DNA of 64,000 bases from Candidatus Microgenomates bacterium (GTDB taxonomy: Bacteria; Patescibacteriota; Microgenomatia; JACQLA01), in the NCBI GenBank assembly GCA_016204255.1, contig JACQLA010000005.1, forward strand, positions 132,339 to 196,338. Direction: 5' to 3'. Shown piece after piece: positions 16,587 through 46,068 of the stretch (its first letter is position 1; every line of letters begins with the position of its first letter). Both the position numbers and the translations under genes were made by a program. The notes under the pieces were generated by a model, which did no database searches, had not been told where the DNA came from, and saw nothing but the letters and a program-made list of their open reading frames with translations.

Positions 16587-18491
16587 CTATACTTTATCTC
16601 CGCCTTCCGGTTTAAAAAGATCAGCAAATGGGGCAGGGGGTTGATTTGAGGTATCCTGACTGTAGGGCGGTGTTTTTTCCTGCGACTTTGGCGCAGACGC
16701 GTGCGCCTTCTCCCTTCTTAAAATATCTTCGGGTTTTGAAGTAACCAGTTCATGTTCGAAAGGAGCCGCAATTATTCTTATAGCCGCGTGCGAGGACCCG
16801 GCAAAAAATAATCCCTCTCCCACATCGGCGGCCAGAAGCAAATGTTTTTCTCCCTGTGAAAGATAGAATGTCTCGGCCAGCTTATCAATTGCCGCCGTTG
16901 ATTGTTTTAAAAGAATTTGAATCGAGGAGTTGGTGATAATGGCTTTACCAAAATCTGAAGAAAGGAAGTCATTAACGTCCTGAGTAATGGTGGTGAGACC
17001 CAAAAAATATTTTCTGGCGCGTTTGGCGATCCCGTATAGAAAGCTGGCTGAGTCCGGATATTGCATTAAATACCATGCCTCATCAACAATCAAAATCCTT
17101 TTCTTCAGGCTTTTTTTAACTCGCGTCCAGACAAAGTCCAGGATAATAAACATCGCGATCGGGCGCAGCTCTTCTTCCAGGTCCTTGATGCAAAAGACGG
17201 TTAAATTGTTCTTGATGTCCACAGTTGAGGCTTGGGAAAAGATTCCGGCGAGCGACCCCTTGATAAATTTTTCCAGCCTTTCAGCCAGTCCTTTGGCCTC
17301 CGGCTCCTCCATCCCAAGGAGAACCTTGTAAAGGTCTTCCATCAGCGGAGGTTCCTTTTTTTGGGTTCTTGGGTCGGGAGTGATGCCTTTTTGTTTATAA
17401 GTTGTGATCAGAGCGCGGTCCAAAATGGCGTCTTCTTTTGGCGTTAATTGCCCCATGATAAGGCGCATCAAAGAATGAAGAGAGAGAATTTTCAGACCGA
17501 GCTCATTTTCTCCTTCCTCATAGACTCCAGAAAGATCAAACGGATTGATTTTATCCGGGGCGGAGAAAGAGAAGTCGATAAACTCACCCCCTAAAGCTTC
17601 GGCTACTTGGCGGTATTCTGCTTCGGGATCAATAATTAAAATCTCGGCGCCAAACATTAAAGACCGTAAAGCCTCAAGTTTTATCAAATAGCTTTTGCCG
17701 CCACCTGATTTTCCCAAAACAACTTCATTGGCATTTTCCATTGAGAAGCGATCAAAAATGACTAGGGAGTCGTTGTGTTCATTAATTCCGTAAAGAATCC
17801 CCTCGTTGGCTGAAAGATCGGAGGAGGTAAAAGGAAAAGTGGTCGCCAAAGAGGTTGTGTCCATGTTTCGGGTGATCATTAAAGTGTCAGTCCCAATAGG
17901 AAGGGTGGTTTTAAAGCCTTCTTCCATTTGGAGACTGGCGGGTTTGGCGACAATCATTAATGAACCAAGCGTGGAAATAACCTCTTTAGATACTTCCTCC
18001 AGTTTGTCTTGGGTTTCCGCTGGAATGGTGACATAGAGCCCAAATTGGAAAAAATGCTCGGCTCCTTTAGCCAACTGTGATTGAAGGGTAAGGGCATCAT
18101 CTAGGGCCACTTGGACCGCGGGATCAACCACTCGTCCTTGCTTAATATCAAGTTCAATGGTGGCTTCCATCTCGGCAACTTTTCTGCGCAGTTCATCCAA
18201 AATCGCCTTCGACTCTACCGGATAAATAAACATACTGACACGCAGAGTATGATCAAAGGAAATTAAAGGAGAAAGCCAGTTGGCAGACACATAGCGCGGG
18301 TAGGCGGCCGTGAAGAGACTGCGATAATAGGAGGGGCCAATTTTAAGGGAGGTAAAATCTACCTCGATTGCGCCCGGCGCAAGAATGTCTTTGACTGAAA
18401 CAAGGCCCTTGGTAAATGTTTCCAATTGCGAAGAAATAGGGGCTGGGGTTGCTTTGGCCTCTTTTTTTGAAAACGGTAAATTTAATTTCAT
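16587..18491 (-). CDS. virB4: VirB4/TrbE/TraC-family type IV secretion ATPase
   Basis: Walker A VLGKSGGGKSYL, Walker B ILIVDEAW, N-terminal VirB4-type domain (IGPSYYRSLFTAAYPRYVSANWL). Confidence 0.85.
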   Translation of the reverse strand: MKLNLPFSKKEAKATPAPISSQLETFTKGLVSVKDILAPGAIEVDFTSLKIGPSYYRSLFTAAYPRYVSANWLSPLISFDHTLRVSMFIYPVESKAILDELRRKVAEMEATIELDIKQGRVVDPAVQVALDDALTLQSQLAKGAEHFFQFGLYVTIPAETQDKLEEVSKEVISTLGSLMIVAKPASLQMEEGFKTTLPIGTDTLMITRNMDTTSLATTFPFTSSDLSANEGILYGINEHNDSLVIFDRFSMENANEVVLGKSGGGKSYLIKLEALRSLMFGAEILIIDPEAEYRQVAEALGGEFIDFSFSAPDKINPFDLSGVYEEGENELGLKILSLHSLMRLIMGQLTPKEDAILDRALITTYKQKGITPDPRTQKKEPPLMEDLYKVLLGMEEPEAKGLAERLEKFIKGSLAGIFSQASTVDIKNNLTVFCIKDLEEELRPIAMFIILDFVWTRVKKSLKKRILIVDEAWYLMQYPDSASFLYGIAKRARKYFLGLTTITQDVNDFLSSDFGKAIITNSSIQILLKQSTAAIDKLAETFYLSQGEKHLLLAADVGEGLFFAGSSHAAIRIIAAPFEHELVTSKPEDILRREKAHASAPKSQEKTPPYSQDTSNQPPAPFADLFKPEGGDKV

Positions 18492-19231
18492 TCTGTTTTT
18501 TCTCCTTCTTCTTTCTCAGGCCCTGTGGGTGGGGAGGGTTGAGGCGGAAGCGGCATTTCAAATCGGGCCTCAACCAGTGGTTTTTCATAGTCTTGGGCCT
18601 GGGCCATCTGTTCTCCCAACACCTGGTTATAAAGATCGTAAAAAAGCTCAAGAAGAGTCTGGGTATTAAGCTGAAAGGCTTTAAGCCCAATCCGGTTTAG
18701 CTGACGGACAAGATGATCCTTTTTTGGCAAAAGAGCGGTTTTGGCGCGCTCCAAAATGTATTCTTTCGGAAAAGGAAGTCCTCCTTTGCCGAATAACGAG
18801 CGACCAGCTCCTTTCACACCCAATTCAATCGCCGAAAAAGGAAGAACCAAATAAAAGTTTTTATCCAAAACGTTGCTTTTGCGGACTGTCTGCTCGATAA
18901 AATCACGATATTTACGGATTTGCTCGCGAACCCTTTCTTCTGTCGTTCGTTCCTCCTGTATCTGTAAGAGATGTAAGTAAGCAGATACGTCTTTTCGCTT
19001 GGAGATAACGACAATTTGGATAGGAAAAGAAAGAGAATTTAACAGGGAGGCATAAGCGTAGATCATGGCATCCTGTTCTTCTTCCGAAAGGAGACCGAAA
19101 TTAATAGCCGAAACCTCCAAAATTAGAGCGCAAGAGCCATCACGCAAAAGGACTAAGTCATCTTTGATGTCCTCAATCTCGAGAAATTCTTGAGTTGAGG
19201 CACGAATAGTAGCTTGGGCAGGAATTGCCAT
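18488..19231 (-). CDS. hypothetical protein resembling a free-standing VirB4 N-terminal domain; translationally coupled to virB4
   Basis: 4-nt overlap with the virB4 start. String EIEDIKDDLVLLRDGSCALILEVSAINFGLLSEEEQD parallels the N-terminal pattern of VirB4/PrgJ-type proteins. No P-loop. Confidence 0.45.
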   Translation of the reverse strand: MAIPAQATIRASTQEFLEIEDIKDDLVLLRDGSCALILEVSAINFGLLSEEEQDAMIYAYASLLNSLSFPIQIVVISKRKDVSAYLHLLQIQEERTTEERVREQIRKYRDFIEQTVRKSNVLDKNFYLVLPFSAIELGVKGAGRSLFGKGGLPFPKEYILERAKTALLPKKDHLVRQLNRIGLKAFQLNTQTLLELFYDLYNQVLGEQMAQAQDYEKPLVEARFEMPLPPQPSPPTGPEKEEGEKTE

Positions 19232-19240: not shown

Positions 19241-20596
19241 TTAATTTTTTACTCCAAAAAGAGAGTCTCTAATTTGCTCCCGGTTAACATCTGTTTGGCT
19301 CTTTGCGTAAATAACTAAGGGAGCCAAAACTTGACCCTCAAGCTTCACCTCTATTATATCAAAAGTAAACTGGTTTTGAGGATCTTCAAGCTCCAGCGTA
19401 TAAGTGCCATTTTCGAGGGGGGTAGCGGAAACAAATTGACCCAATTTATTAGTTTTAAAAGCCCGGACGGAATTCACGCTCTGGTCTTTAATGTCAACTA
19501 AAATATTGGCTAGGAAACTATTGTCGCGTCCCTGAACAATCCCGGTAATAACATTAGGAGTGCTTGTAAGCCTTGGTAGACCAACTTTCTTCGCCGCCTG
19601 AGGAGTAACGATGCGGACATTTTTTCCTTGCGCTTCCAAAACTTCTTCGGGGATTACCCCTTTAGGTCTAACCTTCATTTGCTGTTCTAATTTGATCATC
19701 TCGGCAATAAGGCCCTCTTTCTCCCTTTCGGCTTCTTCCAGCCGCTGTTCTAAAGAATTTAAACGTTCTTCATAAGAAAGAACCTCAGTAGGGGTGGCGG
19801 CAGAGGTTGGAGGCTTATTTTTTAGCTCTTCCAGCTCTCGTTTCAGCCCCTTAATTTCTTCAACGAGAATTTGGTTTCGGTCAGCGATTTTCGATCCTGG
19901 CGGGGCGATGGTTGCGATTTCTTTTTTCTCCTCTTCAAACATTAAGCGCCCGCTTTCACTAAAAACAAGTTTCTTCCCCGGAGGAGTTGATTTTTCCATC
20001 GCCGGCTTGGGTTTAAATGTTGGGAAAGGGGTTTCCTTTTGAGGGAGAAGGGGTTTTAAACCTCTTTTGGGCGAAGCGGAAGACTGTTGAGGATTCAATG
20101 GAGTTGAGGGGAGAGAGCCAATCGTAGCCGCAACGGCGGCAATTTTTTTAAGATGATCTTCTTCTTGGGCATCGAGCGCTGTCGGCAAATTTTTCGGCAG
20201 AGTTTTTAGATATTCCTCCAGCTTTTGCCGGCTTTCCCGGATCTGCAGCGTTGGGATTGCTTTATGCGTTATGGCCGGAAAATCCGGAGACAGGTAAAGA
20301 GGAACCCTTTGAGTTTTTTGATAAACAAATTGAGTGGGGGAATAGACCGATTTTAAAAAAGCCATCAACCAGCGGTGTAAAGGGCGATCTTCAAAGGGAA
20401 GAAAAGCAAAAGCAAAACCCAAAAAAAAGAAAAGTCCAGAGATAAAAATACGAATTATCTGTGGGAAGGGAAGCTGCCAAAAAACGTAGGCCAGTACACA
20501 TCCGGCGGCCAACAACCCAAACTGTTTAATTGTCATGTCGCCGATTAACCGGAACTGGAAGCTGGTGACATTTTGCGGGACAGGATGTTGCTCCAT
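19241..20596 (-). CDS. PrgI/VirB3-like membrane protein fused to a coiled coil and a C-terminal beta-sandwich-like domain
   Basis: N-terminus HPVPQNVTSFQFRLIGDMTIKQFGLLAAG plus two TM helices matches the PrgI-family opening. Central coiled coil. C-terminal CarboxypepD_reg-like string (GTYTLELED). Confidence 0.55.
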   Translation of the reverse strand: MEQHPVPQNVTSFQFRLIGDMTIKQFGLLAAGCVLAYVFWQLPFPQIIRIFISGLFFFLGFAFAFLPFEDRPLHRWLMAFLKSVYSPTQFVYQKTQRVPLYLSPDFPAITHKAIPTLQIRESRQKLEEYLKTLPKNLPTALDAQEEDHLKKIAAVAATIGSLPSTPLNPQQSSASPKRGLKPLLPQKETPFPTFKPKPAMEKSTPPGKKLVFSESGRLMFEEEKKEIATIAPPGSKIADRNQILVEEIKGLKRELEELKNKPPTSAATPTEVLSYEERLNSLEQRLEEAEREKEGLIAEMIKLEQQMKVRPKGVIPEEVLEAQGKNVRIVTPQAAKKVGLPRLTSTPNVITGIVQGRDNSFLANILVDIKDQSVNSVRAFKTNKLGQFVSATPLENGTYTLELEDPQNQFTFDIIEVKLEGQVLAPLVIYAKSQTDVNREQIRDSLFGVKN

Positions 20597-22825: not shown

Positions 22826-24187
22826 TTAGGGGCTAAACCGAAAACCGCGACCTTTAATTGTCTGCAGATGCTGGGGATTTTTAGGATCAGCCTCAGTTTT
22901 TTTCCGCAAACGAAAAATCATCTGGTCAATGGCCTCATCAGAAACCCCCTGATTGGTCGTTCCCGGCCAAACAGCATCGATAATTTCTCCTCGCTCGCAG
23001 ACGCGGTCGGGGTTTTGTAAAAGAAACTTTAAAAGTCGAAATTCCTGGGGAGAAAGACCACTGGAGATAACCTCGCCCCCTTTTAAAATCTCGTTAGTTT
23101 CAACCTGAAAATAAATTTTTTCCTCAGGCTTGATGTAGTTTTGAAAATGATTGGCCAGGAGCGGGATAGTGATTAAAAATTTACTTCCGGTTTTTTTAAT
23201 AAGGTCAAGATCGCTCAAAAAACTTAAAGTTTCATCCTCGGGCACCGGTTGTCCTTGCGCGATTTTGGTTAAAACTTCTTGTTCCTGCGAAGTAAGTGCG
23301 GATAATATCTCAAAAAGAGCTCCCTGAACTGGAGGTTGGGAAAGCAAAAACTCTGAAAGATTATCAACTTTCTTTTGCCGGAGAAGGGTTTCGATGGCAA
23401 CCTTAGTTAGCTTCCCATGCCCGCCAGTTAAAACCAGCACACTCTCCTTAATTTTCGTTTCTAGTTTCTCCCCGGATGTTTTTTCAAGATAAGCGAGGCG
23501 AAAATTCATTCCCGGGTCATCGTGCAGGGGAATATAAACAGTATGTCCGACGAAGAATTCATAAAATTCTTTATAAACCCAACCGTCAAGACTTTTTTCC
23601 AGGGGCCGCGTCAGAGAAAAAATGACCGCGAAACGGTATTTTGCCAAAGACCGTAGAGTCCTTAAGTTAAGGAAAAACTCGCTTGTAGCATTTTTAAAAT
23701 ATTCCTCAAAGCGGTCAAATAACAAAACAAGGGAAAGCCCTTCCTGATTGGCGATGATATCTACGGCTTTTTTGAGATTTTGCCAAAGAATTAAAGGATC
23801 GTTAAGAGAAAGGGCTTCTTTAAAAAGATTCTGAATTTTTTCAAGTGTTTCCTGATATTTTCTTTCGCCTAAAGACTCAAGAAGGTTAAGAAAAATAAAT
23901 TTGTTGACCTCGTGAAGACCGGCTTGACCGGCCTCGGCGAAATTTAAATAAACAAAATGAAAATCTTTTTGCCGCTCGCCTAAGTGTTTAATACGCACGT
24001 TTCTATTGAAAGCTAAAAGCCCCAAAAGATTGGCTCGGCCGACGCCGGGAACACCGATCGCCTGACATGAAAGGCCGGCCCGGACATACCCCAGAATTTT
24101 CTTAATTTCTTCCTCCCGGCTGTTTCCAGGGTAGAGGGACTCGAAGCGAACGGACTCCATATTATCTATAGATCTATTATCTAACAT
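22826..24187 (-). CDS. AAA/ORC-like ATPase domain fused to a C-terminal OmpR/PhoB-type winged-helix DNA-binding domain
   Basis: Degenerate P-loop GVPGVGRANL; Walker-B-like LVLLFDRFEE; C-terminus LSPQEFRLLKFLLQNPDRVCERGEIIDAVW...RLRKK...LQTIKGRGFRF is a Trans_reg_C signature. Confidence 0.65.
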   Translation of the reverse strand: MLDNRSIDNMESVRFESLYPGNSREEEIKKILGYVRAGLSCQAIGVPGVGRANLLGLLAFNRNVRIKHLGERQKDFHFVYLNFAEAGQAGLHEVNKFIFLNLLESLGERKYQETLEKIQNLFKEALSLNDPLILWQNLKKAVDIIANQEGLSLVLLFDRFEEYFKNATSEFFLNLRTLRSLAKYRFAVIFSLTRPLEKSLDGWVYKEFYEFFVGHTVYIPLHDDPGMNFRLAYLEKTSGEKLETKIKESVLVLTGGHGKLTKVAIETLLRQKKVDNLSEFLLSQPPVQGALFEILSALTSQEQEVLTKIAQGQPVPEDETLSFLSDLDLIKKTGSKFLITIPLLANHFQNYIKPEEKIYFQVETNEILKGGEVISSGLSPQEFRLLKFLLQNPDRVCERGEIIDAVWPGTTNQGVSDEAIDQMIFRLRKKTEADPKNPQHLQTIKGRGFRFSP

Positions 24188-24206: not shown

Positions 24207-24575
24207 TCATTTTTGCCGCTCTTTGGCTGTTTTTACGGAACTCATAAAAATCTTAAAAATTTGTCGGCCTTCATCAATCAATGGGAGCATACGCGTTTGA
24301 AGCGATGGGTTAGTTCCAAAAATTAACTCCAGCCAATAGATAGTTTCCTTCGATTCTTTGCGACACTTATTTAAGTCGTGCGAAAAATCTGCATTTGTAT
24401 GAGCGCAGGTAGCTTCTGCATAGTTGGCGCCAATTGAGGATGACGAACGAATAACCTGTCGACCGTAGATAATATTTTCTTCCGTTCTCGGCAAGCTTTT
24501 GATTAGCTTAAGAACTCTTAGAGTAAATTCTTTGAGTCGCTTCTCCAACTCTTCCTGTTTTTGGACTTGATTCAT
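24207..24575 (-). CDS. four-helix-bundle protein (23S rRNA intervening-sequence / S23p family)
   Basis: QVIRSSSSIGANYAEA motif and ~120-aa length are typical of this family. Confidence 0.7.
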   Translation of the reverse strand: MNQVQKQEELEKRLKEFTLRVLKLIKSLPRTEENIIYGRQVIRSSSSIGANYAEATCAHTNADFSHDLNKCRKESKETIYWLELIFGTNPSLQTRMLPLIDEGRQIFKIFMSSVKTAKERQK

Positions 24576-27354: not shown

Positions 27355-28755
27355 TTATCGGAATAGAGCCCGCCATTGCACCTGTCGTGATTGTCCGCCT
27401 GGGCCCATTTCATAACTTGCCGCCATTCCTGCTCTTCTGGCTATTCCTGTTCCCATTGCCGGGCCCGCACCCAAGGCTTGGCCAATCGCAGCGCCATAGG
27501 GGAAGGGAGGAGGCTTGATGGCATCAGTCATCATCTGGGCAACAGCGGGAGTAAGCAGGATTATTCCTAGAGCGATTAAAGCTTGGACAATGGCCGGACT
27601 ATTGCCGCCGATTAAGGGAGCTACCCAGCCAGTGGCCCCCGGTTGCCCAGCTTTAGTTAGCTGGATAAGGGTAGAGGCTAAAGCAAACATTGCAATTGTG
27701 GTAGGAAAGACCATCAAATTAGCAAAAATACCTCTGACCCAACCGGAAATACCGAGACTACTTCCCCCGGGTAAGGCACCTAATAGAAGCTGGAAAGGGG
27801 CAAAAATAATCATTACCAAGACCCAAACGTAAGCTTTAATGAGTATAAAGAGAAGTCGGAATAGAGCCCAAAGAATGGCAACTGCAAAAACAGCGGTGGC
27901 AATTCCTCGAGCGCCTGTGCTGAGAAAACCAGAAAGAATAAACAGGTTTCCGGTGATTTCCTCAACAAACTTACTAATTCCTTCGGCTGGTTTATTTATG
28001 CTCTCAAAACCCAAGTTCGACACGGATGACCAGTAGCCAAAAACATTTGCTCCTGAAAATTGGTCAAAACCGTCAAAATTAATTCCGGGGACACTCTTAA
28101 AAAGATTAAGTATAAGGTAAATAATAACGTACATTAAATCGATTAATAGTCCGGCGATGGCATAGGAGAGGGTAATTAGAACAAGGGTAATTAAAAGTCG
28201 CGGCAAAGCAGTTTGAATCGAAACGACAGCCTGGGGAGATATTTTGATCCGGAGCATAATCATTATTCCGACAACCATAAAAATAAGAATGAAAACAAAA
28301 TAGGCGGCATTACGAAAGGCAGCCCAAATGGGGAGAAGATAGGATAAACCTTTAAAACCGGTTCCCTGAGCATAAGCAGGAGTAGCCAGACCCACGTTTT
28401 GTTTAAGGTAGGCTATATAGTCAGCTGTGGAGGCAGGTGGTACATAGAGTTTGCTGATTAGAGTGCCGACTGCTCCGATTGCTCCGCTGTTACCAAGATC
28501 AAGAAGTTCCGGGTGGGCTTCTGACTGGCCTGTCAATAAGTAGTTGAGGCTGTCGACCGTGCCAGCCATCTGATTAAGGTTAAAAGCTTTATCATCAAAA
28601 CCCGGTCCCTGCGAAGAAGGATCGAGTATAGTTTGGTTTTCCTGCTGGAGGAGTTGGGCGCGTACCGGGGTGGCAATAAAAACAGTTATGCTTAAAGCCA
28701 AAAAAAAGGAAAAAATAACAAAAATTCTCGGCAGGATTTTCATTTTACCTTTCAA
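27355..28755 (-). CDS. polytopic membrane protein, VirB6/TrbL-like candidate
   Basis: Signal peptide plus about 8 TM helices; size and position next to the pilin genes resemble VirB6/TrbL; no sequence motif verified. Confidence 0.45.
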   Translation of the reverse strand: MKGKMKILPRIFVIFSFFLALSITVFIATPVRAQLLQQENQTILDPSSQGPGFDDKAFNLNQMAGTVDSLNYLLTGQSEAHPELLDLGNSGAIGAVGTLISKLYVPPASTADYIAYLKQNVGLATPAYAQGTGFKGLSYLLPIWAAFRNAAYFVFILIFMVVGIMIMLRIKISPQAVVSIQTALPRLLITLVLITLSYAIAGLLIDLMYVIIYLILNLFKSVPGINFDGFDQFSGANVFGYWSSVSNLGFESINKPAEGISKFVEEITGNLFILSGFLSTGARGIATAVFAVAILWALFRLLFILIKAYVWVLVMIIFAPFQLLLGALPGGSSLGISGWVRGIFANLMVFPTTIAMFALASTLIQLTKAGQPGATGWVAPLIGGNSPAIVQALIALGIILLTPAVAQMMTDAIKPPPFPYGAAIGQALGAGPAMGTGIARRAGMAASYEMGPGGQSRQVQWRALFR

Positions 28756-28802: not shown

Positions 28803-30545
28803 TTATTGAGATGGCCAGAGAGATCTTCTGACCCAATCGCCGGCATTTTTCACCCCGGCAATAAAATCAGGATAGGCAACTGTTTCTGTGGGAGGAACGA
28901 ATGTTGCATTTCCGCCAAGACTTTCGTAGTCAAGATTTGGAGTCTCGCCATGTTTTTCGTATTGAACTTGGTTTAAAATGACTCCGGTTTCAACTGCCGG
29001 GGTGAAAAAACCCCAGAAACCAGTTTTCTTATTTTCTAAATCGCTGGTACTTTTATTCCAAATGGATTTCAAATAGGGGACAAAAACCGTCATGTCAATA
29101 GGGATATCAACTGTTTTTTGGCCCGGGGTGTAGGTCGTGGAACTTGAACATGTATAGCCACAACAGGCTGGATTTAATTGTGAGGTGTATCCCGGTGGTC
29201 TTCCCCATTCGCCGTCAGCGGTGCACTGCCAGACTTCTTCAATCCCGCCCGACGGGCAACCTTCAAGACATTGTGTGTAAAACTCTCCCGGCGTGCAAGA
29301 GCCGCTCGGCGGCCCAGGGCAGAGAGAAGTAGTCGAGGAATTAGCACAAACAAAAACCCGACTGTTTGTATTATTCGAGATAATACTGATTCTGTCAGGC
29401 ATGCAAAATTGGTCCCCATCTCCCTGATCAGCGGGAGGTGTAAGATGACAACCGCTATGATCTTCATTAATAATGGTTGTCATGTCTAAGACGTCACCGG
29501 CCGGAGAAAAATTTGTTTGAGTAGCAGCAAGCAAAACTGGCTGGTTTTTAAATGGCTTTAAAGCCGGAGCTGATGATGTATGTAGACTACAACTGGAAGA
29601 TTCGTTGTTGGCTAATGAGTTATCTTGGGAATTATTCGAAAGAGGGGATTGGGCGACCTTGGGAAGTAACAATTGATTAAGTCCAGCTGAGACACGATTA
29701 GTTCGAAAATACTCCGGAATTGTGAGATCATAACGAGGGGCAGGGCAGCTTACCTCAGATGGTGCTTTTGGATTTCCCCAATCATCCAGCGCGCGACCAG
29801 CGGCCCCAAGCTTTCCAGTAGCTTTATCGTTGGCGGCAATCGGAATCTTATCCCAGTATCGACCCCAGGTATTTGCCCAGAGTTCTTTTTCTGCCGCACT
29901 TGATTTTTCGGTCGGTGGGTAATAACAGTTTGGATTAGAAGAACAATACTTATCATAAAGCTGTTTAATAGTTAGGGCTGGACCATTACCATAAACATCT
30001 GTGTAGGTAAACTTGGCATCGTTGCGAGTAGACTTGTCTAAAATATACTGCACATATTTTAGTTTTAGACCACTGGTTTCACCAAAATCTTGATTGAAAA
30101 TAATTTTGGGAGTTAATTTTTGAGCAGGGCCATTATAATTATTCCATTGGCTAGAGTTTAAATTAAAAAAATCTGTTTGTTGATGGTTACCACTTGTATC
30201 TTGAAAATCTCCTTCCAGATAGTCTGAATTATATTTGGCAAAGACCGACTCAAGATCTTCAATTTTAAAATCCATTTGCCAATTTACAGTAACCCACTGG
30301 CCTTTTCCGCTCGCACAGCTGCCTCCAGGCGGAGGGTCTTCGTAAGGTAAACTACTATTTCCCTGAAAAACAACGCGCGCCATTGGTCCTTCAATTGGTA
30401 TAGGGGTCAAAGGTCCGGTTTCTGGTAAAGTACAATCGTTACCAGCAGCTTGGATAGTACCAGGGAGGAGGAGAAGACTAATTAAAATAAGGAAAAAAAA
30501 TGAGCAGAGCCTGAACATTTTAGGGATAGACAATTTTAAAAGCAC
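28803..30545 (-). CDS. secreted Cys-rich protein (580 aa)
   Basis: Signal peptide (LCSFFFLILISLLLLPGTIQA); many Cys clustered in the C-terminal third (CANSSTTSLCPGPPSGSCTPGEFYTQCLEGCPSGG..WQC..ACCGYTC). Confidence 0.55.
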   Translation of the reverse strand: MLLKLSIPKMFRLCSFFFLILISLLLLPGTIQAAGNDCTLPETGPLTPIPIEGPMARVVFQGNSSLPYEDPPPGGSCASGKGQWVTVNWQMDFKIEDLESVFAKYNSDYLEGDFQDTSGNHQQTDFFNLNSSQWNNYNGPAQKLTPKIIFNQDFGETSGLKLKYVQYILDKSTRNDAKFTYTDVYGNGPALTIKQLYDKYCSSNPNCYYPPTEKSSAAEKELWANTWGRYWDKIPIAANDKATGKLGAAGRALDDWGNPKAPSEVSCPAPRYDLTIPEYFRTNRVSAGLNQLLLPKVAQSPLSNNSQDNSLANNESSSCSLHTSSAPALKPFKNQPVLLAATQTNFSPAGDVLDMTTIINEDHSGCHLTPPADQGDGDQFCMPDRISIISNNTNSRVFVCANSSTTSLCPGPPSGSCTPGEFYTQCLEGCPSGGIEEVWQCTADGEWGRPPGYTSQLNPACCGYTCSSSTTYTPGQKTVDIPIDMTVFVPYLKSIWNKSTSDLENKKTGFWGFFTPAVETGVILNQVQYEKHGETPNLDYESLGGNATFVPPTETVAYPDFIAGVKNAGDWVRRSLWPSQ

Positions 30546-30924
30546 CTATCAAATCCACTCCGGTCATTGTTTTAATGGCACTGAGGATAAGATAAGCAGA
30601 GAAGATTATAACTAAACCTAAAATAGCATAGGTCATGGTTTTTTTTGCCACTTCCACATTCTTCGGGTCTCCACTGGAAGTAATAAATTTAATTCCTCCC
30701 CAGAGTAAAAAAAAGAGACACACAACTGGAGCGATGACAAAAAGGACTTTGATTATACTCTGGATATAATTTTCTAAACATCCTAGCGTTAGCACCTGTT
30801 CACCAGGCAATCCGGCAATATCATTATATATGCAATCATTTTGGGCCAAACTGGAGCGAGTAGAGAAAATCAAAAGAATGAAATAAAAAAAAGAGAACAA
30901 GAAAAATTTAGAGAGGATCCTCAT
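30520..30924 (-). CDS. T4SS pilin-like protein (VirB2/TrbC-like), paralogue 1
   Basis: Signal peptide, then helix-GGIKFITSSGDPKNVEVAKK-helix, the hairpin motif shared by all four paralogues. Confidence 0.7.
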   Translation of the reverse strand: MRILSKFFLFSFFYFILLIFSTRSSLAQNDCIYNDIAGLPGEQVLTLGCLENYIQSIIKVLFVIAPVVCLFFLLWGGIKFITSSGDPKNVEVAKKTMTYAILGLVIIFSAYLILSAIKTMTGVDLIGAFKIVYP

Positions 30925-30946
30925 ATTTTTACCTTACTAAACCAAA

Positions 30947-30970
30947 GACCTTCCGTCAAGACGGAAGGTC
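30947..30970 (-). terminator. candidate intrinsic terminator after pilin paralogue 2
   Basis: Perfect 9-bp stem GACCTTCCG/CGGAAGGTC with a 6-nt loop; on the minus strand it is followed by TTTGGTTT. Confidence 0.45.
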
Positions 30971-31029
30971 ATAATTCCTTTCAGTTAATACTTAATCAAA
31001 ATTTCTTAAACCGAAATAACTATATCCCG

Positions 31030-31431
31030 CTATTGATACAGGCCAGGGATAACGACATTCGTACTACTAATAATAGAGATACCAAAAAGCTGCTCGATGA
31101 CAGAGATGATTAACCAGGCTGCCAAGACAATGATCAAGCCGATAACAGCTGCTGTTAAAGTTCCTCTGGCTGACTCAGCCGCGGCCTTATCTCCACCAGA
31201 GAGAATCCATCGGATTCCGCCAATGATTAAAAAGACGAAGGCTACGATAAAGGCAACTACCAATAACAACCTAATGATGCCCGGAATAGCTGAGTTGAAA
31301 TTAATGTTTTGTAAATTTCCAAATCCTGGTGGCGCATTTAGGATTGGTTGCGCAAAGGCTATGCCAGCGCTTGTTAATAGAGCTGCTGTCCCCGAAATTG
31401 CACCAAGGCCAATTTTAATTTTTGTTTTCAT
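31030..31431 (-). CDS. T4SS pilin-like protein, paralogue 2
   Basis: Signal peptide; FLIIGGIRWILSGGDKAAAESARG followed by a hydrophobic helix. Confidence 0.7.
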   Translation of the reverse strand: MKTKIKIGLGAISGTAALLTSAGIAFAQPILNAPPGFGNLQNINFNSAIPGIIRLLLVVAFIVAFVFLIIGGIRWILSGGDKAAAESARGTLTAAVIGLIIVLAAWLIISVIEQLFGISIISSTNVVIPGLYQ

Positions 31432-31508
31432 TTTTCACCTCCTCTCGCTATGTGAAGTTTGTGCAGTTAAATTTAGCATAGTCTAAATTCTTTACCCTTG
31501 TCAAGTTT

Positions 31509-31850
31509 TTAAAAACCTATGGATTCGGGTCTGACCCCGAACATCCGGGTTAGTGTATAAACTATAAAGAAAGAGAGTAAAGCCAGGATAAGGCCTAAAA
31601 TTGCGTAAGTAACTCTGGCTTTTGCTTTCCCGACGCCTTCTTTGTTGCCGCCTGAAGTGATCCAAGAGATCCCGCCCAGTAAAAGAAAGATTAAGGCTAC
31701 AATAAAGGAAACAACCAGAAGAAGCTTAATTATACCGGGGATAATTCCGGTTTCGATGGTCGTCCAGCTACGAGGGATGTTATAAGGAACATTGATTTGT
31801 CCTTGCGCAAAGGCTTTAGGCGCCAGATTTAAAAATAAAAAAATTGGCAT
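31509..31850 (-). CDS. T4SS pilin-like protein, paralogue 3
   Basis: FLLLGGISWITSGGNKEGVGKAKA followed by a hydrophobic helix. Confidence 0.7.
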   Translation of the reverse strand: MPIFLFLNLAPKAFAQGQINVPYNIPRSWTTIETGIIPGIIKLLLVVSFIVALIFLLLGGISWITSGGNKEGVGKAKARVTYAILGLILALLSFFIVYTLTRMFGVRPESIGF

Positions 31851-31862
31851 AGTCCTGAATGA

Positions 31863-32612
31863 TTATTCCGGGCGAAAAAGTTGTATTGGTATTCCCGGTA
31901 TACCACCGAAGATTTTTATATTGAAAAAATCTAAAATGACAACTGCAAAAATCAAAAACAAAAGACCAACGACAGCGGCGGTTAAAAGTTGTTTGGCGCC
32001 TTGTAGTTTTTCCGGGTTGCCGGATGAAGTGAGGATTTGAAAGCCGGCGACGAAAAAAAGAAAAAGTGCTATGGCGCCAGCAATACCGATAATGTATTTG
32101 AGAAAAAAACTGGCAAAACCGGTGGCCGATGTTGGGATACAACCAATAGCGGTTTCAATGCCGCCGCCAGCACATGTAGCAGGCTGAAAGCCAGGGCCGG
32201 CGGGTCCTCCGCCTATTGAACCGGCTTTCGCAACGGTGACTTCCGAAATCGAGCAACCTTTATTGTAGCTTTCTTCCAGTGTTAAAAAATAAATACCGGT
32301 CGGTTTGTCCGTAGGGATCCGTATAGTTCTATTTTCTATTAGGCCGTTTCCGTCAGCTCTTGTCGTATAGAAGATAGAATAAGGGTCACTGATTGCGAGA
32401 GCCTTTTTAAGACCAACAGAAACGGTTGCGTAAGAACTAAATCCGGAAGCGTTAAGCACAAAATAATCGCCTTGCTCCAAAGAGACGGGTGCGGAAGGGG
32501 TGATTGAACAGTTTTGAGCCAAAATAAGCCCTGGGCTTTTGGCTACGAAGAAAGCAAATAAAAACAAAAAGGATAAGCAAAGGATAAATAGTTTTAATTT
32601 AAGCTTCTCCAT
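31863..32612 (-). CDS. T4SS pilin-like protein, paralogue 4, with an extra ~130-aa N-terminal extracellular domain
   Basis: Signal peptide, extra beta-rich domain, then FFVAGFQILTSSGNPEKLQGAKQ plus a hydrophobic helix. Confidence 0.65.
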   Translation of the reverse strand: MEKLKLKLFILCLSFLFLFAFFVAKSPGLILAQNCSITPSAPVSLEQGDYFVLNASGFSSYATVSVGLKKALAISDPYSIFYTTRADGNGLIENRTIRIPTDKPTGIYFLTLEESYNKGCSISEVTVAKAGSIGGGPAGPGFQPATCAGGGIETAIGCIPTSATGFASFFLKYIIGIAGAIALFLFFVAGFQILTSSGNPEKLQGAKQLLTAAVVGLLFLIFAVVILDFFNIKIFGGIPGIPIQLFRPE

Positions 32613-32643
32613 TAATTTCCAGCATAGCGTACCTTTTTTTCTT

Positions 32644-32672
32644 TTGCAAGAGGGCCAGATTTTTGTTAAAAT
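32644..32672 (+). promoter_or_regulatory. candidate promoter of the SpoIID-like gene: TTGCAA, 17-nt spacer, TAAAAT
   Basis: Read directly from the sequence; 22 nt upstream of the ATG at 32694. Confidence 0.4.
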
Positions 32673-32693: not shown

Positions 32694-34406
32694 ATGAAAT
32701 TTAAGCTACTCCTTTTAATTCCCGCGGTTATAGTCTCTGTTGTCTTTTGGCCAACGATTGTTTTGGCAGATGATTGCGATACTTCTAAAGTCTCCAGCAT
32801 GGATCTTGATCAGATTAATGATCTTTTGGCTAAATGTGAGCGGGCCCGTCAGATGTCGATTGATGCTACCAGACCTTTAGAGGGTAGCTTGAGTAAGCTG
32901 GAAATTCAACTAAAAAATATTCAGGGGAGAGTAGGGCAGATTGAAGCGGATTTGATTAACAAAGAGAAAAAAATTAAGGAAGGAGAAGCGAATCTAGTGG
33001 GTCAGGAAGAAATTCTGGGTAAAAGAGCCCGCCGTTTTTATATCCGCAGCCATTACAACTTCCCCCTTTTAATGCTTTTTGCTCAAAACACAGCTGCTGA
33101 TTTAACCCATGAGCTTGCTTATCAAAAAACCTTAACCGATCAGGATAAACAGTTAATCATTAAGACCGCCTTGGAAATTAAGGATTTGGAGGACAAAAAG
33201 AAGAATCTGGAATCAGAAAAAATTACCTTGGCCAAGGTCAAGGAAGAAACCGATAAACAAGCCGCTTTTTTCCGCAAAGAAATCGAAGGAGCCAAAGATT
33301 ATCAGTCTCAACTATCACAGGATATCGTCGGTATCACTCAGCGACAGCAAGAAATCTTGTCCGCCCGATCAGGTCAATTTATCGCCAGTATTGGAGATAG
33401 TGAACTAGCCGATGATTACAACGCTTCGATTAAAGGTTTTAGGGAGGCCGCTCCTTCCGGCTCTTTCGCAGTTTTTTCTTTTGGAGCTTATACTCACAGA
33501 AAAGGTATGAGCCAATATGGGGCCAGGGGTAGAGCAATGAACGGTCAGGATTATAAAGCCATCCTTAAAGCCTATTACGGAAAAGAGCCGGTCAGTAAAG
33601 ACACAGGAGGAGATATTAAAGTTTCTGGAATGGGATCAATGAATTTTGAAGAAAAATATTTATATGGTATTGCAGAGATGCCTTCTACTTGGCATCCGGA
33701 AGCGCTGAAAGTTCAGGCCGTGGCAGCCAGAACTTATGCTTACCGTTATAAGCAGGAAGGTAAGGAGATTTGTACGTCTGAAGCCTGTCAGGTCTTTTCC
33801 AAATCCAAGTCCGATAATCCACCCCAGGCATGGAAAGATGCGGTTAATGCTACTAGGGGTCAAGTGATTGAAGATGTAATTACTTATTATGCTTCCACCC
33901 ACGGAGGTTATACAACTACCATGGGTTGGGATACCACAGATGGGGGCGGAGGCTCTAATTTTGTAGATAAATCTTACGATAAAGTAGGCGGTTCTCCTTG
34001 GATCTATAAGGCTTGGTATACTCAAGGCTATAGTGTTAACAGCGATAAATGCGGGCGTTCAAACCCTTGGCTTAATGGCGTTGAGATGGCCGATATTGTT
34101 AACGCGGCCTTAGTGTTGGTCAAAGGTAGTGGTGATGAGATATCCCGTATCACTCCGGTTTCTTCTTGTTGGGGTGGAGATCCCTACAGCATGGACGAGT
34201 TGCGCTCTGTGGCGGGTAAATATGGGGGTATTTCTTCCGCCTCCAGCGTCGGTGTGGTTCAAGGTACCGGTAATACCAATCAGGTAACTATTAATGGTGT
34301 CGTTTTATCCGGCGCTGATTTTAAAAAAGCGTTTAACTTAAGAGCCCCCGGCAGAATGTCTATTCCTCAAAGCGGCTTTGCCTTCTTTAATATTGAGAAA
34401 AAGTAA
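32694..34406 (+). CDS. SpoIID/LytB-domain cell-wall protein with N-terminal coiled coil
   Basis: MSQYGARGRAMNGQDYKAILKAYYG and EALKVQAVAARTYA are SpoIID signatures; signal/TM plus coiled coil at the N-terminus. Confidence 0.8.
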   Translation: MKFKLLLLIPAVIVSVVFWPTIVLADDCDTSKVSSMDLDQINDLLAKCERARQMSIDATRPLEGSLSKLEIQLKNIQGRVGQIEADLINKEKKIKEGEANLVGQEEILGKRARRFYIRSHYNFPLLMLFAQNTAADLTHELAYQKTLTDQDKQLIIKTALEIKDLEDKKKNLESEKITLAKVKEETDKQAAFFRKEIEGAKDYQSQLSQDIVGITQRQQEILSARSGQFIASIGDSELADDYNASIKGFREAAPSGSFAVFSFGAYTHRKGMSQYGARGRAMNGQDYKAILKAYYGKEPVSKDTGGDIKVSGMGSMNFEEKYLYGIAEMPSTWHPEALKVQAVAARTYAYRYKQEGKEICTSEACQVFSKSKSDNPPQAWKDAVNATRGQVIEDVITYYASTHGGYTTTMGWDTTDGGGGSNFVDKSYDKVGGSPWIYKAWYTQGYSVNSDKCGRSNPWLNGVEMADIVNAALVLVKGSGDEISRITPVSSCWGGDPYSMDELRSVAGKYGGISSASSVGVVQGTGNTNQVTINGVVLSGADFKKAFNLRAPGRMSIPQSGFAFFNIEKK

Positions 34407-39845: not shown

Positions 39846-40283
39846 ATGCGTATTGTAAACCGACGTGTCATTCACGACTTTCAGATTTTAGAGAAATTTG
39901 AGGCGGGGATAAACTTGACCGGTCCGGAGGTGAAGGCGGTAAAAGGGGAGCACCTGGACTTGACGGGAAGTTTTGTAAAAGTAGTCGGGAGCGAGATTTA
40001 TTTGGTTAATGCCAAAATCTATGCACCCAGTTATGCTCAATCGCAGGATTATGATTTGGCCCGAACCCGTAAACTGCTTTTACACAAAAAACAGATATTA
40101 GCGCTGAGGACAAAAATGGCCCAGAGTAATTTGACAATCGTGCCTCTGACATGCTATACTAAGCACGGTTTAATCAAGCTCGAAATAGCTTTGGCCAAAG
40201 GTAAAAAACAGTCAGACAAACGGGAAGAGTTGAGAAGAAAAGATATCGATCGGGAACTTGAACGAGAATTACGAAGAAAATAA
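39846..40283 (+). CDS. smpB: SsrA-binding protein SmpB
   Basis: NRRVIHDFQILEKFEAGINLTGPEVKA... and ...LLLHKKQI signatures; followed by the tmRNA gene. Confidence 0.9.
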   Translation: MRIVNRRVIHDFQILEKFEAGINLTGPEVKAVKGEHLDLTGSFVKVVGSEIYLVNAKIYAPSYAQSQDYDLARTRKLLLHKKQILALRTKMAQSNLTIVPLTCYTKHGLIKLEIALAKGKKQSDKREELRRKDIDRELERELRRK

Positions 40284-40301
40284 ATATAAAATATTTTAAA
40301 C

Positions 40302-40719
40302 GGGGATGTTAAGATTCGACGGGGAAGCACTTTGAAAACTGCAAGCCGACTTTGATCAAAAGCCGTTAAACAGGGTCAAAAAAACAAATGTCAACAAATT
40401 AGTTGGCAAGGTTACAGGAGCGATGAATGCGTTCGCGCGTGTTTTTACTCCGGTAGCTCCGAATTACGCTTTTGCCTAAAAGCGCTTTGGCGTAAAACGG
40501 CATTTATAGGGTTTTTTCCTGATGAGGCCTTATAGGTGTAAACCTAGTCAGGATGAGAAAAGTTGAGTAGCTGACGTCAGCTTTTCAAATAAAAAGTTAG
40601 CTAGTCTTAATTTTCCAGTCGAAAGGACCAGATTAAGGCGAAACTTTAAATTTCGACTAAGCTTGTAGAAATTTTCAATTTGAATTTCTCGGACCCGGGC
40701 TCATTACCCGGCATCTCCA
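40302..40719 (+). ncRNA. ssrA: tmRNA (ssrA); tag reading frame ends ...APNYAFA* (stop TAA 40477-40479); CCA not encoded
   Basis: 5' GGGGATGTTAAGATTCGACGGGG. 3' T-arm CCGGG/CCCGG. Acceptor GGGGATG pairs with CATCTCC, including the G3:U pair, with discriminator A. Tag ORF gct ccg aat tac gct ttt gcc taa. Confidence 0.8.
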
Positions 40720-40865
40720 CTCTTCGCTCCTAAGGTAAAACTTAGGAGCTGCGAGGTGGCACAGCCACTTTAATTAGTAAGTTCACGGGAATCATAGGCG
40801 GAGAGTGTCCCTACCGTAGCTCGCCAGAGCGAAGGGGGGCTTTTTTATTTTGATAGAATAATTTT

Positions 40866-43488: not shown

Positions 43489-43574
43489 GGAGGAGTGACC
43501 GAGTGGCTTATGGTGCAGGTTTGCTAAACCTGTGTCCTGTAAAGGGCGCGTGGGTTCGAATCCCACCTCCTCCG
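43489..43574 (+). tRNA. tRNA-Ser(GCT), class II, CCA not encoded
   Basis: Hand-folded cloverleaf: acceptor GGAGGAG/CTCCTCC, anticodon loop TTGCTAA, long variable arm, T-arm GTGGG-TTCGAAT-CCCAC. Confidence 0.85.
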
Positions 43575-43577
43575 CAA

Positions 43578-43644
43578 CGTAAGAAATCGCTAGGCGATTT
43601 CAACGTTGCTGGAGCGTTGAAATTCACGAAGTGAATTTCTTACG
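43578..43644 (+). repeat. 67-nt nested-palindrome leader (element D) between tRNA-Ser(GCT) and GIY-YIG copy 2
   Basis: CGTAAGAAAT|CGC-TAG-GCG|ATTTCAACG-TTGCTGGAG-CGTTGAAAT|TCAC-GAA-GTGA|ATTTCTTACG. All four helices are perfectly complementary. Confidence 0.7.
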
Positions 43645-43652
43645 CTGCCGCC

Positions 43653-43913
43653 ATGTTCTATTATGTATATATTCTCCGAAGCCAAAAAAGTGGTAGTCTG
43701 TATATCGGATATACGACAGATTTAATAAAGAGGTTCGAACAGCATAATAACGGTAAAAGTCAAGCAACAAAGCCATTCCGACCCTATAAACTTATTTATT
43801 ATGAAGCGTTTTTGGATAGAGTTGATGCAAAGAGGAGAGAGGTATATCTGAAAAGTGGATATGGGAGAAAAACGATAAATAGATTACTTAACAAATATTT
43901 AAAGCAGGGTTAG
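43653..43913 (+). CDS. small GIY-YIG nuclease, copy 2 (86 aa)
   Basis: MFYYVYILRS..LYIGYTTDL..RFEQH..LIYYEAF. Confidence 0.85.
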   Translation: MFYYVYILRSQKSGSLYIGYTTDLIKRFEQHNNGKSQATKPFRPYKLIYYEAFLDRVDAKRREVYLKSGYGRKTINRLLNKYLKQG

Positions 43914-43936
43914 AATATAAAAAATATATTAAGTTT

Positions 43937-44341
43937 ATGGAAATAACAAACGAAAAACTTATCCAAAGGGCACAAAAAATAGTTAAACCAACTAAGCAGC
44001 GGAATGGTTTTTCGATTGCTGATTGTGGGGCCGCTTTGTTGACGGATAAGGGAAATATTTATTTGGGGTTAAGTATTGATACTCCATCAAGTATGGGTTT
44101 TTGTAGCGAACATGCAGCAATAGCTACCATGGTTACTGCCGGAGAATATAAAATCAAAAAAATTGTGGCAGTTCTTGAAGACGGCACAATTTTACCCCCA
44201 TGCGGAAGATGCCGCGAATTCATTTACCAAATTGATAGAGGAAATTTGGAGACAGAGGTGATAATTGCCGAGAACGAAGTGGTTAAACTGAAAGATTTAC
44301 TTCCTTATCCGTGGGATGAGAATTTAGAAAATAGGTTCTAA
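43937..44341 (+). CDS. cdd: cytidine deaminase
   Basis: Zinc ligand motifs CSEHAAI and PCGRCREF. Confidence 0.8.
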   Translation: MEITNEKLIQRAQKIVKPTKQRNGFSIADCGAALLTDKGNIYLGLSIDTPSSMGFCSEHAAIATMVTAGEYKIKKIVAVLEDGTILPPCGRCREFIYQIDRGNLETEVIIAENEVVKLKDLLPYPWDENLENRF

Positions 44342-44370
44342 TGGTGCCAATGGTTCGCCGCAGATATAGA

Positions 44371-44459
44371 GGAAGGGTGTCCGAGTGGTTTAAGGAGATG
44401 GTCTTGAAAACCATTGGATCGTAAGATCCTCGTGGGTTCGAATCCCACCCCTTCCGCCA
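44371..44459 (+). tRNA. tRNA-Ser(TGA), CCA encoded
   Basis: Acceptor GGAAGGG/CCCTTCC, anticodon loop CTTGAAA, long variable arm, T-arm GTGGG-TTCGAAT-CCCAC, GCCA 3' end. Confidence 0.85.
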
Positions 44460-44478
44460 ATTTTTTAAAACTTTTGAT

Positions 44479-44838
44479 ATGAGTATAAAAATTGAGAGAG
44501 CAAATCTTGCTCCCCAAATAGCTTATGATCTTGAGGCTCAAGCGATCACTATTCAGTGGGCTTTAACGGAAGGAGAGCTGGTTAAAATTGCACGTTTTCT
44601 GGAACGGGTTGAGTTAATTGAAGAGCTCGGACTCGAATGGTACCGATTGTATTATAAAAGTGATCAGGGTGATTCAGTGGCCACTGTTTGTAAAGAACAT
44701 GTAGATCAAGCAGTGTTAGATGAAATGAATACCGGAGACACGATGACTTTTATTCAAACCCGAGAGCGAAAGCCAGAAGTTTTTGACGGGCGAGAATTGT
44801 GCGCAGTAGCCGCAATCCTGTCGGGAGAACAGCTTTAA
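44479..44838 (+). CDS. hypothetical protein (119 aa)
   Basis: ORF track only. Confidence 0.4.
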   Translation: MSIKIERANLAPQIAYDLEAQAITIQWALTEGELVKIARFLERVELIEELGLEWYRLYYKSDQGDSVATVCKEHVDQAVLDEMNTGDTMTFIQTRERKPEVFDGRELCAVAAILSGEQL

Positions 44839-44944
44839 AGAAGAAAAAATAACCCGAAGCACCAATTAAATTAATGCCGACATCTTGAAGGCCGAGAAAA
44901 TGATATAATTATTGTGTTCTTCAAGAACAACAAAAGGAGGAAGT

Positions 44945-45562: not shown

Positions 45563-45586
45563 TTTCTGCCCGGATCACAACTGTTT

Positions 45587-45660
45587 GTGCCCGTAGCTTA
45601 ACTGGATAGAGCACAAGATTGCGGATCTTGAGGTTGGAGGTTCAAGTCCTCCCGGGCACG
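45587..45660 (+). tRNA. tRNA-Arg(GCG), CCA not encoded
   Basis: Acceptor GTGCCCG/CGGGCAC, anticodon stem CAAGA/TCTTG with loop TTGCGGA, T-arm GGAGG-TTCAAGT-CCTCC. Confidence 0.8.
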
Positions 45661-45662
45661 CA

Positions 45663-45723
45663 ACGTACAAAATCAAAGATTTTTACGTTGCTGAGACGTA
45701 AAATTACTTTGTAATTTGTACGT
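45663..45723 (+). repeat. 61-nt nested-palindrome leader (element A) between tRNA-Arg(GCG) and GIY-YIG copy 3
   Basis: ACGTACAAA|ATC-AAA-GAT|TTTTACGT-TGCTGAG-ACGTAAAA|TTAC-TTT-GTAA|TTTGTACGT. Same architecture as element D with different helix sequences. Confidence 0.7.
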
Positions 45724-45730
45724 CTCGCCC

Positions 45731-45982: not shown

Positions 45983-45984
45983 CT

Positions 45985-46068
45985 GGAGGGTTGGCCGAGC
46001 GGTTTAAGGCGCTGGTTTCGAAAACCAGTGGGCGTAAGCCCTCACAGGTTCGAATCCTGTACCCTCCG
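45985..46068 (+). tRNA. tRNA-Ser(CGA)
   Basis: Acceptor GGAGGGT/ACCCTCC, anticodon loop TTCGAAA, long variable arm, T-arm ACAGG-TTCGAAT-CCTGT. Confidence 0.85.

Follow-up and report, generated by a model that had tools for sequence, protein, structure and literature searches.

Four tandem pilin genes lie near the replication origin of a Candidatus Microgenomates chromosome, in a 64,000-nucleotide (nt) stretch of contig JACQLA010000005.1 (assembly GCA_016204255.1; positions 132,339 to 196,338 of the forward strand) that is referred to below as the window and whose numbering is used throughout. Comparison of the four proteins, p1 to p4, with those encoded at related loci indicates that they are ancient paralogues, each of which is tied to its position in the array. 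The leading position in such arrays is nearly always taken by a long pilin with a hypervariable N-terminal ectodomain. It is likely that the four proteins build a multi-subunit surface assembly of the VirB2 type, with one major and several minor subunits, that belongs to the patescibacterial type IV secretion system (T4SS). Roles can be assigned to the individual subunits only tentatively.

All four genes are minus-strand open reading frames (ORFs) and lie exactly where a first-pass annotation of the sequence had placed them. The first to be transcribed, p1 (31863-32612; 249 amino acids [aa]), represents class 1, the "extended" pilins, and is followed by p2 (class 2; 31509-31850; 113 aa), the start of which is located 12 nt past the p1 stop codon, p3 (class 3; 31030-31431; 133 aa), and p4 (class 4; 30520-30924; 134 aa). 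The same genes, identical in sequence, are present in the public gene calls of five independent metagenome contigs, and the precomputed Pfam labels on public gene calls agree in giving PF18895 for the four pilins. Our profile searches likewise led to this one family and not to unrelated small membrane proteins: each of the four exceeds the 26.6-bit gathering cut-off for PF18895 (T4SS_pilin), two of them only marginally (p1, 26.8; p2, 28.5; p3, 36.7; p4, 53.1 bits). The matches cover the same region of the profile (residues 170-230 in p1), the orthologues of these pilins in relatives score higher, and p4 nearly reaches the cut-off for PF04956, TrbC/VirB2 (27.4 bits; cut-off 27.9). Moreover, a hidden Markov model built from the pilin cores had p1-p4 as its sole matches among the ORFs of at least 60 aa in the window. 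Pairwise identity among the four is 25-39% over the full length and 24-40% over a 95-aa core. The motif that they were first said to share is present in the form (G/A)G-x-x-(W/F/I)(I/L)(T/L)-S-(S/G)-G-(D/N)-x6-A-(K/R), with two residues after the GG instead of the one originally counted, AG in place of GG in p1, and AR at the end in p3. In the alignment, a basic loop (TSSGNPEKLQGAK and variants) connects the two hydrophobic helices. Collectively, these profile and alignment data let us regard the assignment of p1-p4 to a single VirB2/TrbC-like pilin family as secure, with little room for doubt. Two ORFs that overlap the pilin genes, at 31097-31486 (plus strand) and 31816-32142 (minus strand), were treated as by-products of the ORF listing, and Rfam and tRNA scans found nothing within 30.5-32.7 kb.

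To place the four genes among their relatives, one genome per species was scanned with a trimmed alignment of the pilin domain, which yielded 17 related loci (L numbers below). Their record titles refer to Woesebacteria, Levybacteria, Shapirobacteria, Doudnabacteria, Staskawiczbacteria, unnamed Patescibacteria, and, for several, "Gammaproteobacteria". The number of paralogues in relatives, which the first-pass annotation had advised checking, is 4-10 same-strand pilin ORFs in 14 of the 17 loci. In almost all of these 14 arrays the first one to three pilins are 200-647 aa long and the remainder 100-175 aa. Seven arrays of four genes were then compared by BLAST, and for each gene the position of its best match in each of the other arrays was recorded. 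Genes at position 1 had their best match at position 1 in all 42 comparisons, those at positions 3 and 4 at the same position in 40 of 42 each, and those at position 2 in 28 of 42, giving 150 same-position best matches out of 168. The core identity between genomes is 36-49% for genes at the same position and 29% for genes at different positions, relative to the 24-40% found within the window's own array. That same-position identity exceeds identity within an array indicates that the duplications are older than the divergence of these lineages and that the gene order has been kept since. Judged by these comparisons, p1-p4 are old, position-bound paralogues, and such positional orthology fits fixed, distinct roles better than interchangeable variants. 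Ten of the records are entitled "uncultured Gammaproteobacteria bacterium" (L006-L008, L011, L012, L014, L015, and L017-L019). These titles are probably wrong; the records carry pilin arrays typical of the Candidate Phyla Radiation (CPR) and, where checked, VirB4 of the CPR type, TrsD, or SpoIID neighbors.

The class 1 pilin p1 had been described as carrying an added N-terminal domain of approximately 130 aa. The domain is real; however, it amounts to ~115 aa (domain and linker together) and follows the signal peptide instead of forming the extreme N-terminus. The signal peptide (approximately residues 1-32; 32517-32612) is succeeded by a beta-rich ectodomain of ~96 aa (residues 33-128; 32229-32516), a Gly/Pro-rich linker, AGSIGGGPAGPGFQPAT (residues 129-146; 32175-32228), a Cys-bracketed beta-hairpin, C147...C158 (CAGGGIETAIGCIP), and the two-helix pilin domain that extends to residue 249, all encoded on the minus strand. 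Homologues of p1 match only its C-terminal ~40%, where an invariant Cys pair bracketing I-x-T-A-I-G-C-I-P precedes the two helices. Their pilin domains are 40-69% identical, despite N-terminal regions that cannot be aligned, range from none to ~570 residues (the 647-aa L013 protein), and are often Cys-rich. Pfam searches with ten long class 1 pilins from relatives matched the pilin domain and gave no match for the N-extensions.

The N-terminal domain of p1 has no direct Pfam match either. A phmmer search with residues 33-128 against 1.84 billion representative proteins returned only ten matches, p1 included; the others are proteins of 733-3183 aa with 3-15 repeated stretches each. The best of these (E = 6e-13 and 3e-10) are ~100-aa tandem repeats in proteins of 733-1043 aa, which align over the whole domain with 26-29% identity. 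All six of the six repeats examined match CarboxypepD_reg, a beta-sandwich family, weakly (best E = 1.9e-4). The repeat matches and the modeling described below suggest that the p1 N-domain is probably a surface domain of the repeat-type, beta-sandwich kind; we make no claim about its fold beyond all-beta and probably a sandwich.

The pilin part of p1 is modeled well by AlphaFold2 (AF2), with a predicted local distance difference test (pLDDT) score of 87-92 at residues 150-230, where a hairpin (residues 151-160) and two helices (residues 163-195 and 200-229) are found. A signal peptide had been ascribed to all four proteins, and this holds for p1, p3, and p4. That of p3 is clearly of the Sec type (ending in GIAFA, followed by QP), and p4 has, in addition to its signal peptide, a Cys pair (C31 and C49) ahead of helix 1. 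It does not clearly hold for p2, the N-terminus of which (MPIFLFLNLAPKAFA) is short and has no basic residue and hence no basic n-region, so that a signal peptide is doubtful; the position-2 counterparts of p2 in relatives have none. Many pilins at positions 2 and 4 of related arrays likewise lack a signal peptide, among them those at L008 7161-7466 and 6297-6611, L010 7225-7539, L013 6433-6750, and L018 6999-7304; their sequence opens directly with a tail of 20-30 aa, or with a hairpin bracketed by Cys residues, ahead of helix 1. Their existence implies that some subunits are inserted into the membrane independently of a signal peptide. In general terms, each array protein would have an N-terminus that is exported and, behind it, a pair of hydrophobic helices that form a hairpin in the membrane and are connected by a short basic loop. 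In pilins of the VirB2/TraA type, both termini are outside the cell and the loop is cytoplasmic. Given this topology and the cleaved signal peptide, the p1 ectodomain would, by analogy, be positioned outside the cell, on the outer face of any filament; the membrane topology thus supports the extracellular location that had been proposed for it.

Separate expression of array members had also been proposed, on the basis of a hairpin between two of the genes. The hairpin is real. It occupies 30947-30970 on the minus strand, 59 nt past the p3 stop and 22 nt before the p4 ATG, and resembles a terminator: the sequence from 30970 to 30947 reads GACCTTCCGT-CTTG-ACGGAAGGTC, is followed by TTTGGTTT, and forms a perfect stem of 10 bp, six of them G-C, closed by a 4-nt loop. 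The intergenic region that contains it has a minimum free energy of -26.4 kcal/mol (z = -3.1), and 3 of 200 shuffled sequences fold as well. Ahead of p3, on the same strand, are a promoter-like site, TTGACA-18-TATGCT (31475-31504), and a strong Shine-Dalgarno sequence, GGAGGT (31437-31442). Together, these elements make differential expression plausible, although it is not proven. From its flanking sequences, p3 appears to be a transcription unit of its own, bounded by the promoter-like site and the hairpin. As only 22 nt separate the hairpin from the p4 start, p4 and the two genes downstream of it, which are coupled translationally or closely, probably depend on read-through, and the hairpin would here set how much p3 is made relative to p4 and the products of those two genes. 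A weaker promoter-like site, TTGCAA-17-TATGCT (32621-32649, minus strand), ends 8 nt before the p1 ATG, within the 81-nt divergent intergenic region that p1 shares with the SpoIID-domain gene opposite; it is a consensus match only.

The site ahead of p3 has counterparts in related arrays. Of the 14 arrays, 8 have the pattern TTGAC[AT]-N16-19-TAnnnT where the penultimate pilin gene starts, as against 2 of the remaining 63 pilin genes (Fisher p = 5e-6); the background rate is 0.09 sites per kb on each strand. The -10 elements at the penultimate pilins of several relatives end only 5-10 nt ahead of the ATG (L008, ~6650; L009, ~8100; L017, ~6655 and ~7213; L018, ~6520; L013, ~5960), which suggests that the mRNAs are leaderless or have a very short leader. 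The L013 site is inside the annotated ORF, and the start of that longest ORF is probably wrong.

How might these proteins act together? The machine formed by PrgI (VirB3), TrsD, and VirB4 would extract the pilins from the membrane and assemble them at the surface into a single structure of several subunits, either a pilus or a short conduit, used in contact with the host cell. With a sigma-70-like promoter of its own and a strong ribosome-binding site, class 3 would be the most abundantly made and serve as the principal building block. Classes 2 and 4 would supply minor subunits, active in priming, in capping, or at the base; class 1, present in few copies, would expose a domain for binding the host or the wall on the outside or at the tip. 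The division into major, minor, and tip subunits made in the first-pass annotation is in this light a reasonable hypothesis, sharpened but not proven by the comparison; we hold the assignment of these roles to p1-p4 as tentative, at somewhat less than even chances. A step further, and possible rather than probable, the leading subunit in Microgenomatia and related CPR bacteria might be a modular "adhesin-pilin", in which a conserved pilin anchor carries, on a flexible linker, a rapidly evolving, lineage-specific ectodomain that sets host recognition, while the filament is built from fixed, specialized subunits. If true, this would offer a handle on the host specificity of uncultivated episymbionts that can be read from sequence. 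What is observed is that the proteins belong to the family, that the genes form an array with orthology by position, that the N-extensions vary, that promoter-like sites are enriched at the penultimate pilin, and that there is synteny with T4SS genes; filament assembly, the subunit ratios, and the adhesin role are what the comparison leads us to infer.

Several results weigh against a multi-subunit filament with these subunit classes. A Foldseek search of the PDB with the p1 pilin model gave nothing at E <= 0.001, and a profile search of PDB sequences with the four-pilin alignment gave nothing below E = 0.4. The best-placed of the solved conjugative pilins, the conjugation pilus of Aeropyrum (8dfu), ranked eighth by Foldseek (E = 3.7, TMt 0.57), and a two-helix hairpin is too simple a structure to discriminate. 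The N-domain has a pLDDT below 50 in the AF2 model of full-length p1. Aligned with its repeat relatives, it is modeled as all-beta with eight strands, at low confidence (pLDDT 55.6); the Foldseek hits of this model in the PDB are not significant (Ig-like domains at the top, E >= 0.38), and no PDB sequence was matched below E = 0.4 when a profile of the aligned N-domains was used. Taken alone, the window region has 12 promoter-like sites, no excess over the 8.6 +/- 2.8 in shuffled sequence. No conserved terminator follows the class 3 gene in the other arrays, and the hairpin is specific to this genome or lineage. The related loci were found through the similarity of the class 1 pilin domain, so that the presence of class 1 in them is partly a matter of selection, and class labels are coarse in arrays of more than four genes. 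Finally, a filament of these pilins has not been seen in any Patescibacterium (PMC12857230), and monoderm T4SSs are normally without pili (PMC12102498).

Alternatively, the pilins could be translocon parts that remain in the cytoplasmic membrane or immediately above it and make up a channel or stalk, heteromeric in composition, within a monoderm T4SS; no extended pilus would then form, and the p1 ectodomain would contact the cell wall or S-layer. The MPF_FATA systems of the Gram-positive type, to which CPR VirB4 is related, have no pili (PMC12102498), and Foldseek found no match to solved pili in the PDB. In addition, the pilins come just below the cut-off (40 bits) for NF045849, the Mbov_0395 pilin-like conjugal transfer protein of Mycoplasma integrative and conjugative elements (ICEs), a family without a known pilus. 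Here p4 scores 37.4 bits and p3 has no match, while the two remaining scores, 19.5 and 17.5 bits, belong to the pair p1 and p2; p1-p4 were accordingly not counted as members but as related to the family. The sub-threshold matches span the two-helix core of p1, p2, and p4, and the hosts are likewise monoderm or wall-less, with an MPF_FATA-like T4SS. The gene for the NF045849 protein is, as far as is known, single-copy in ICEs. As a side observation, these matches hint that monoderm systems of the MPF_FATA type are not entirely devoid of VirB2-like proteins, contrary to the literature. On the other hand, the PF18895 and TrbC profiles describe pilus subunits, and position-specific members of major-like and minor-like character, together with an ectodomain on a flexible linker, look more like a filament system; a 2025 review, moreover, treats the pilus as a live possibility (PMC12857230). 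We therefore consider a channel or stalk without filament unlikely, though it is the strongest of the alternatives, and the present data do not separate a short stalk from a long pilus.

The paralogues could also be interchangeable major subunits used one at a time, for antigenic or host-range variation, so as to suit various host strains or escape recognition. This idea has been offered for Patescibacteria (PMC12102498) and finds some support in the high divergence of the copies (25-39% identity) and in class 1 ectodomains that are hypervariable between genomes. However, the paralogues are closer to the same-position genes of other genera than to their own neighbors, and gene order is conserved, which points to old subfunctionalization instead of recent diversifying duplication. 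The classes also differ in architecture: the ectodomain, the Cys pair, and even the signal peptide are present in some and absent in others. Moreover, the six genes SEML1_0014-0019 of Southlakia epibionticum all match PF18895 and form a predicted pilin series within its essential T4SS cluster (PMC10633639, Wang et al. 2023). The series is called essential there, and SEML1_0017-0019 are each scored essential in the transposon-sequencing table. One of the six, SEML1_0015, has a modest N-extension. An essential series supports non-redundant roles and argues against simple redundancy. Variation of this kind is thus improbable for the array as a whole; it may apply to the class 1 ectodomain alone. 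The paralogous VirB2 genes of Bartonella and Anaplasma, which are thought to serve antigenic variation, resemble the window array in their tandem amplification and divergence and in belonging to a T4SS for host interaction. They differ in that paralogues of the window type are conserved by position across genera, as expected for fixed, distinct roles. That the four are unrelated small membrane proteins, pilin-like through hydrophobic composition only, is scarcely credible: three PF18895 scores (26.8, 28.5, and 36.7) are near the 26.6-bit cut-off and there are weak matches to other helical membrane families (E > 0.01), but p1-p4 match one family over the same profile region with higher-scoring orthologues in relatives, their conserved loop motif is polar and not hydrophobic, and the array is contiguous with PrgI, TrsD, and VirB4 genes in relatives.

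Returning to the multi-subunit VirB2-type assembly, its parts can be compared with those of better known systems. Classical conjugative pilins (VirB2, TrbC, and TraA of the Agrobacterium T-pilus, RP4, and F) share with p1-p4 the leader, the two hydrophobic helices, and the short basic loop, as well as the dependence on an ATPase system of the VirB4 type. In the classical systems, a single pilin gene goes with a two-membrane envelope and a separate tip protein, VirB5, and the pilin has no globular domain fused to it; the window system, by contrast, has one membrane and four paralogues, one of them with a fused ectodomain. To our knowledge, fusion of a globular domain to a VirB2-type pilin has not been described. 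Type IV pili and the chaperone-usher systems pap and fim follow the same logic, with one highly expressed major subunit that has its own promoter or terminator, several minor subunits of low copy number, and an adhesin subunit; however, their folds and assembly machines are unrelated, and the type IV prepilin leader (G followed by F-x-x-x-E) is, on inspection of the sequences, missing from p1-p4. Type IV pilins of the PilA type (type IV pili and type II secretion) were considered as an identity for the four proteins and rejected, as none has a class III leader (G followed by F/M-x-x-x-E) and the p1 model has a two-helix hairpin instead of a single long N-terminal helix.

The presence of several pilins had been regarded as unusual for VirB2-type systems. 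This is true of the textbook systems, but arrays have already been described for this lineage (PMC12102498, PMC10633639). A search of 3,035 Patescibacteria genomes with PF18895 and PF04956 (PMC12102498, Quinonero-Coronel et al. 2025) identified 441 VirB2 arrays of 2-11 genes in 383 assemblies, most abundant in Microgenomatia and Saccharimonadia, with a mean identity of 25% (maximum 54%) and with T4SS genes often adjoining dnaA/dnaN. The window array, with four consecutive genes and a VirB4-like gene in the genome, falls within the definition used there, which asks for at least two VirB2-like genes that are in tandem or have one non-pilin gene between them, and within that range of low identity. 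Like the published arrays, SEML1_0014-0019 included, it consists of tandem, same-strand, strongly diverged genes matching PF18895, belongs to the Microgenomatia, as many of them do, is chromosomal and near dnaA/dnaN, and is associated with VirB4, TrsD, and PrgI. The window locus is consequently nothing new in kind; it refines a known system and does not define a new one. In the literature on patescibacterial arrays (PMC12102498, PMC10633639, PMC12857230), we did not find a description of four conserved classes bound to their place in the array, of a first pilin that carries a variable ectodomain, of a dedicated promoter for the penultimate pilin, or of class 2 and class 4 pilins without a signal peptide. 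The review cited above also discusses the essential six-pilin array of S. epibionticum (PMC12857230), and the T4SS with its pilin array is essential for the epibiotic growth of this one genetically tractable Patescibacterium. The comparison turns a "variable array" into a model that can be tested, with four conserved classes, one bearing a variable displayed domain and one separately promoted, and it points to class 3 for filament tagging and class 1 for tests of host recognition.

That the array is chromosomal and near the origin follows from the presence in the window of dnaA (10965-12323), dnaN (12609-13736), smpB with the transfer-messenger RNA (tmRNA) gene, and a tRNA cluster. Three T4SS genes are on the same strand as the array, ~10 kb away (10-16 kb) and not adjoining it: a PrgI/VirB3-like gene (19241-20596, minus; PF12666, 26.0 bits, just under the 27-bit cut-off), a TrsD-like gene (18488-19231, minus; match to the TrsD profile), and a gene for a VirB4-like ATPase (16587-18491, minus; PF19044, 88.5 bits, with AAA_10 and VirB4 N-terminal matches). 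Between them and the array, ~8 kb downstream of the latter and again on the same strand, is a gene (22826-24187, minus) for a Trans_reg_C protein of ~450 (453) aa with a C-terminal winged helix of the OmpR/PhoB type (PF00486, 73.7 bits) and no detected receiver domain. In L008, L013, L017, and L018, the gene for the Trans_reg_C protein, the pilin array, the PrgI-like gene, and TrsD are contiguous; the order is shared by L010, where ~2 kb separate the array from the genes that follow. VirB4 comes next after TrsD in L008, L017, and L018, where the locus extends that far. The 453-aa protein may regulate the transcription of the pilin and T4SS genes. Homologues with 45-47% identity to it are encoded immediately upstream of the array in L008, L010, L011, L013, L014, L017, and L018.

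The gene that follows p4 (28803-30518, minus) starts 1 nt past the p4 stop (TAAAATG) and encodes a secreted protein of 571 aa with 18 Cys residues, for which neither a Pfam or NCBIfam match nor a homologue among the 17 related loci was found; one possibility is a surface protein or effector that is specific to the lineage and co-expressed with the array. Next is a gene for a 466-aa protein (27355-28755, minus) with eight membrane helices predicted from hydropathy and no Pfam or NCBIfam match, homologues of which directly follow the arrays in L016 and L006. Together with a 769-aa polytopic membrane protein (14272-16581, minus; six predicted helices, no family match), it is a candidate for the VirB6 analogue reported as "missing" in Microgenomatia (PMC12102498).

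Divergent from the array, on the plus strand, is a gene (32694-34406) for a secreted SpoIID-domain protein of 570 aa with a long coiled-coil N-terminal part, and the same divergent arrangement is found in L006, L009, L015, and L020. This protein might be a cell-wall-remodeling, VirB1-like partner of the T4SS. Inside the T4SS region, at 24207-24575 (minus), is a gene of the 23S rRNA intervening-sequence protein family (PF05635). Three such genes are located around and inside the array of L011 (3000-3365, 6300-6674, and 7952-8323), one of which occupies the 472-nt gap after the class 1 pilin gene. Elsewhere in the window, the plus-strand stretches 39846-40722 and 43489-46268 carry smpB directly followed by the tmRNA gene (119 bits) and, further on, six tRNA genes, four for Ser and two for Arg. 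In the last 12 kb (52000-64000) the G+C content falls from ~0.40-0.45 to 0.32-0.37, and this part may differ from the rest in origin or function.

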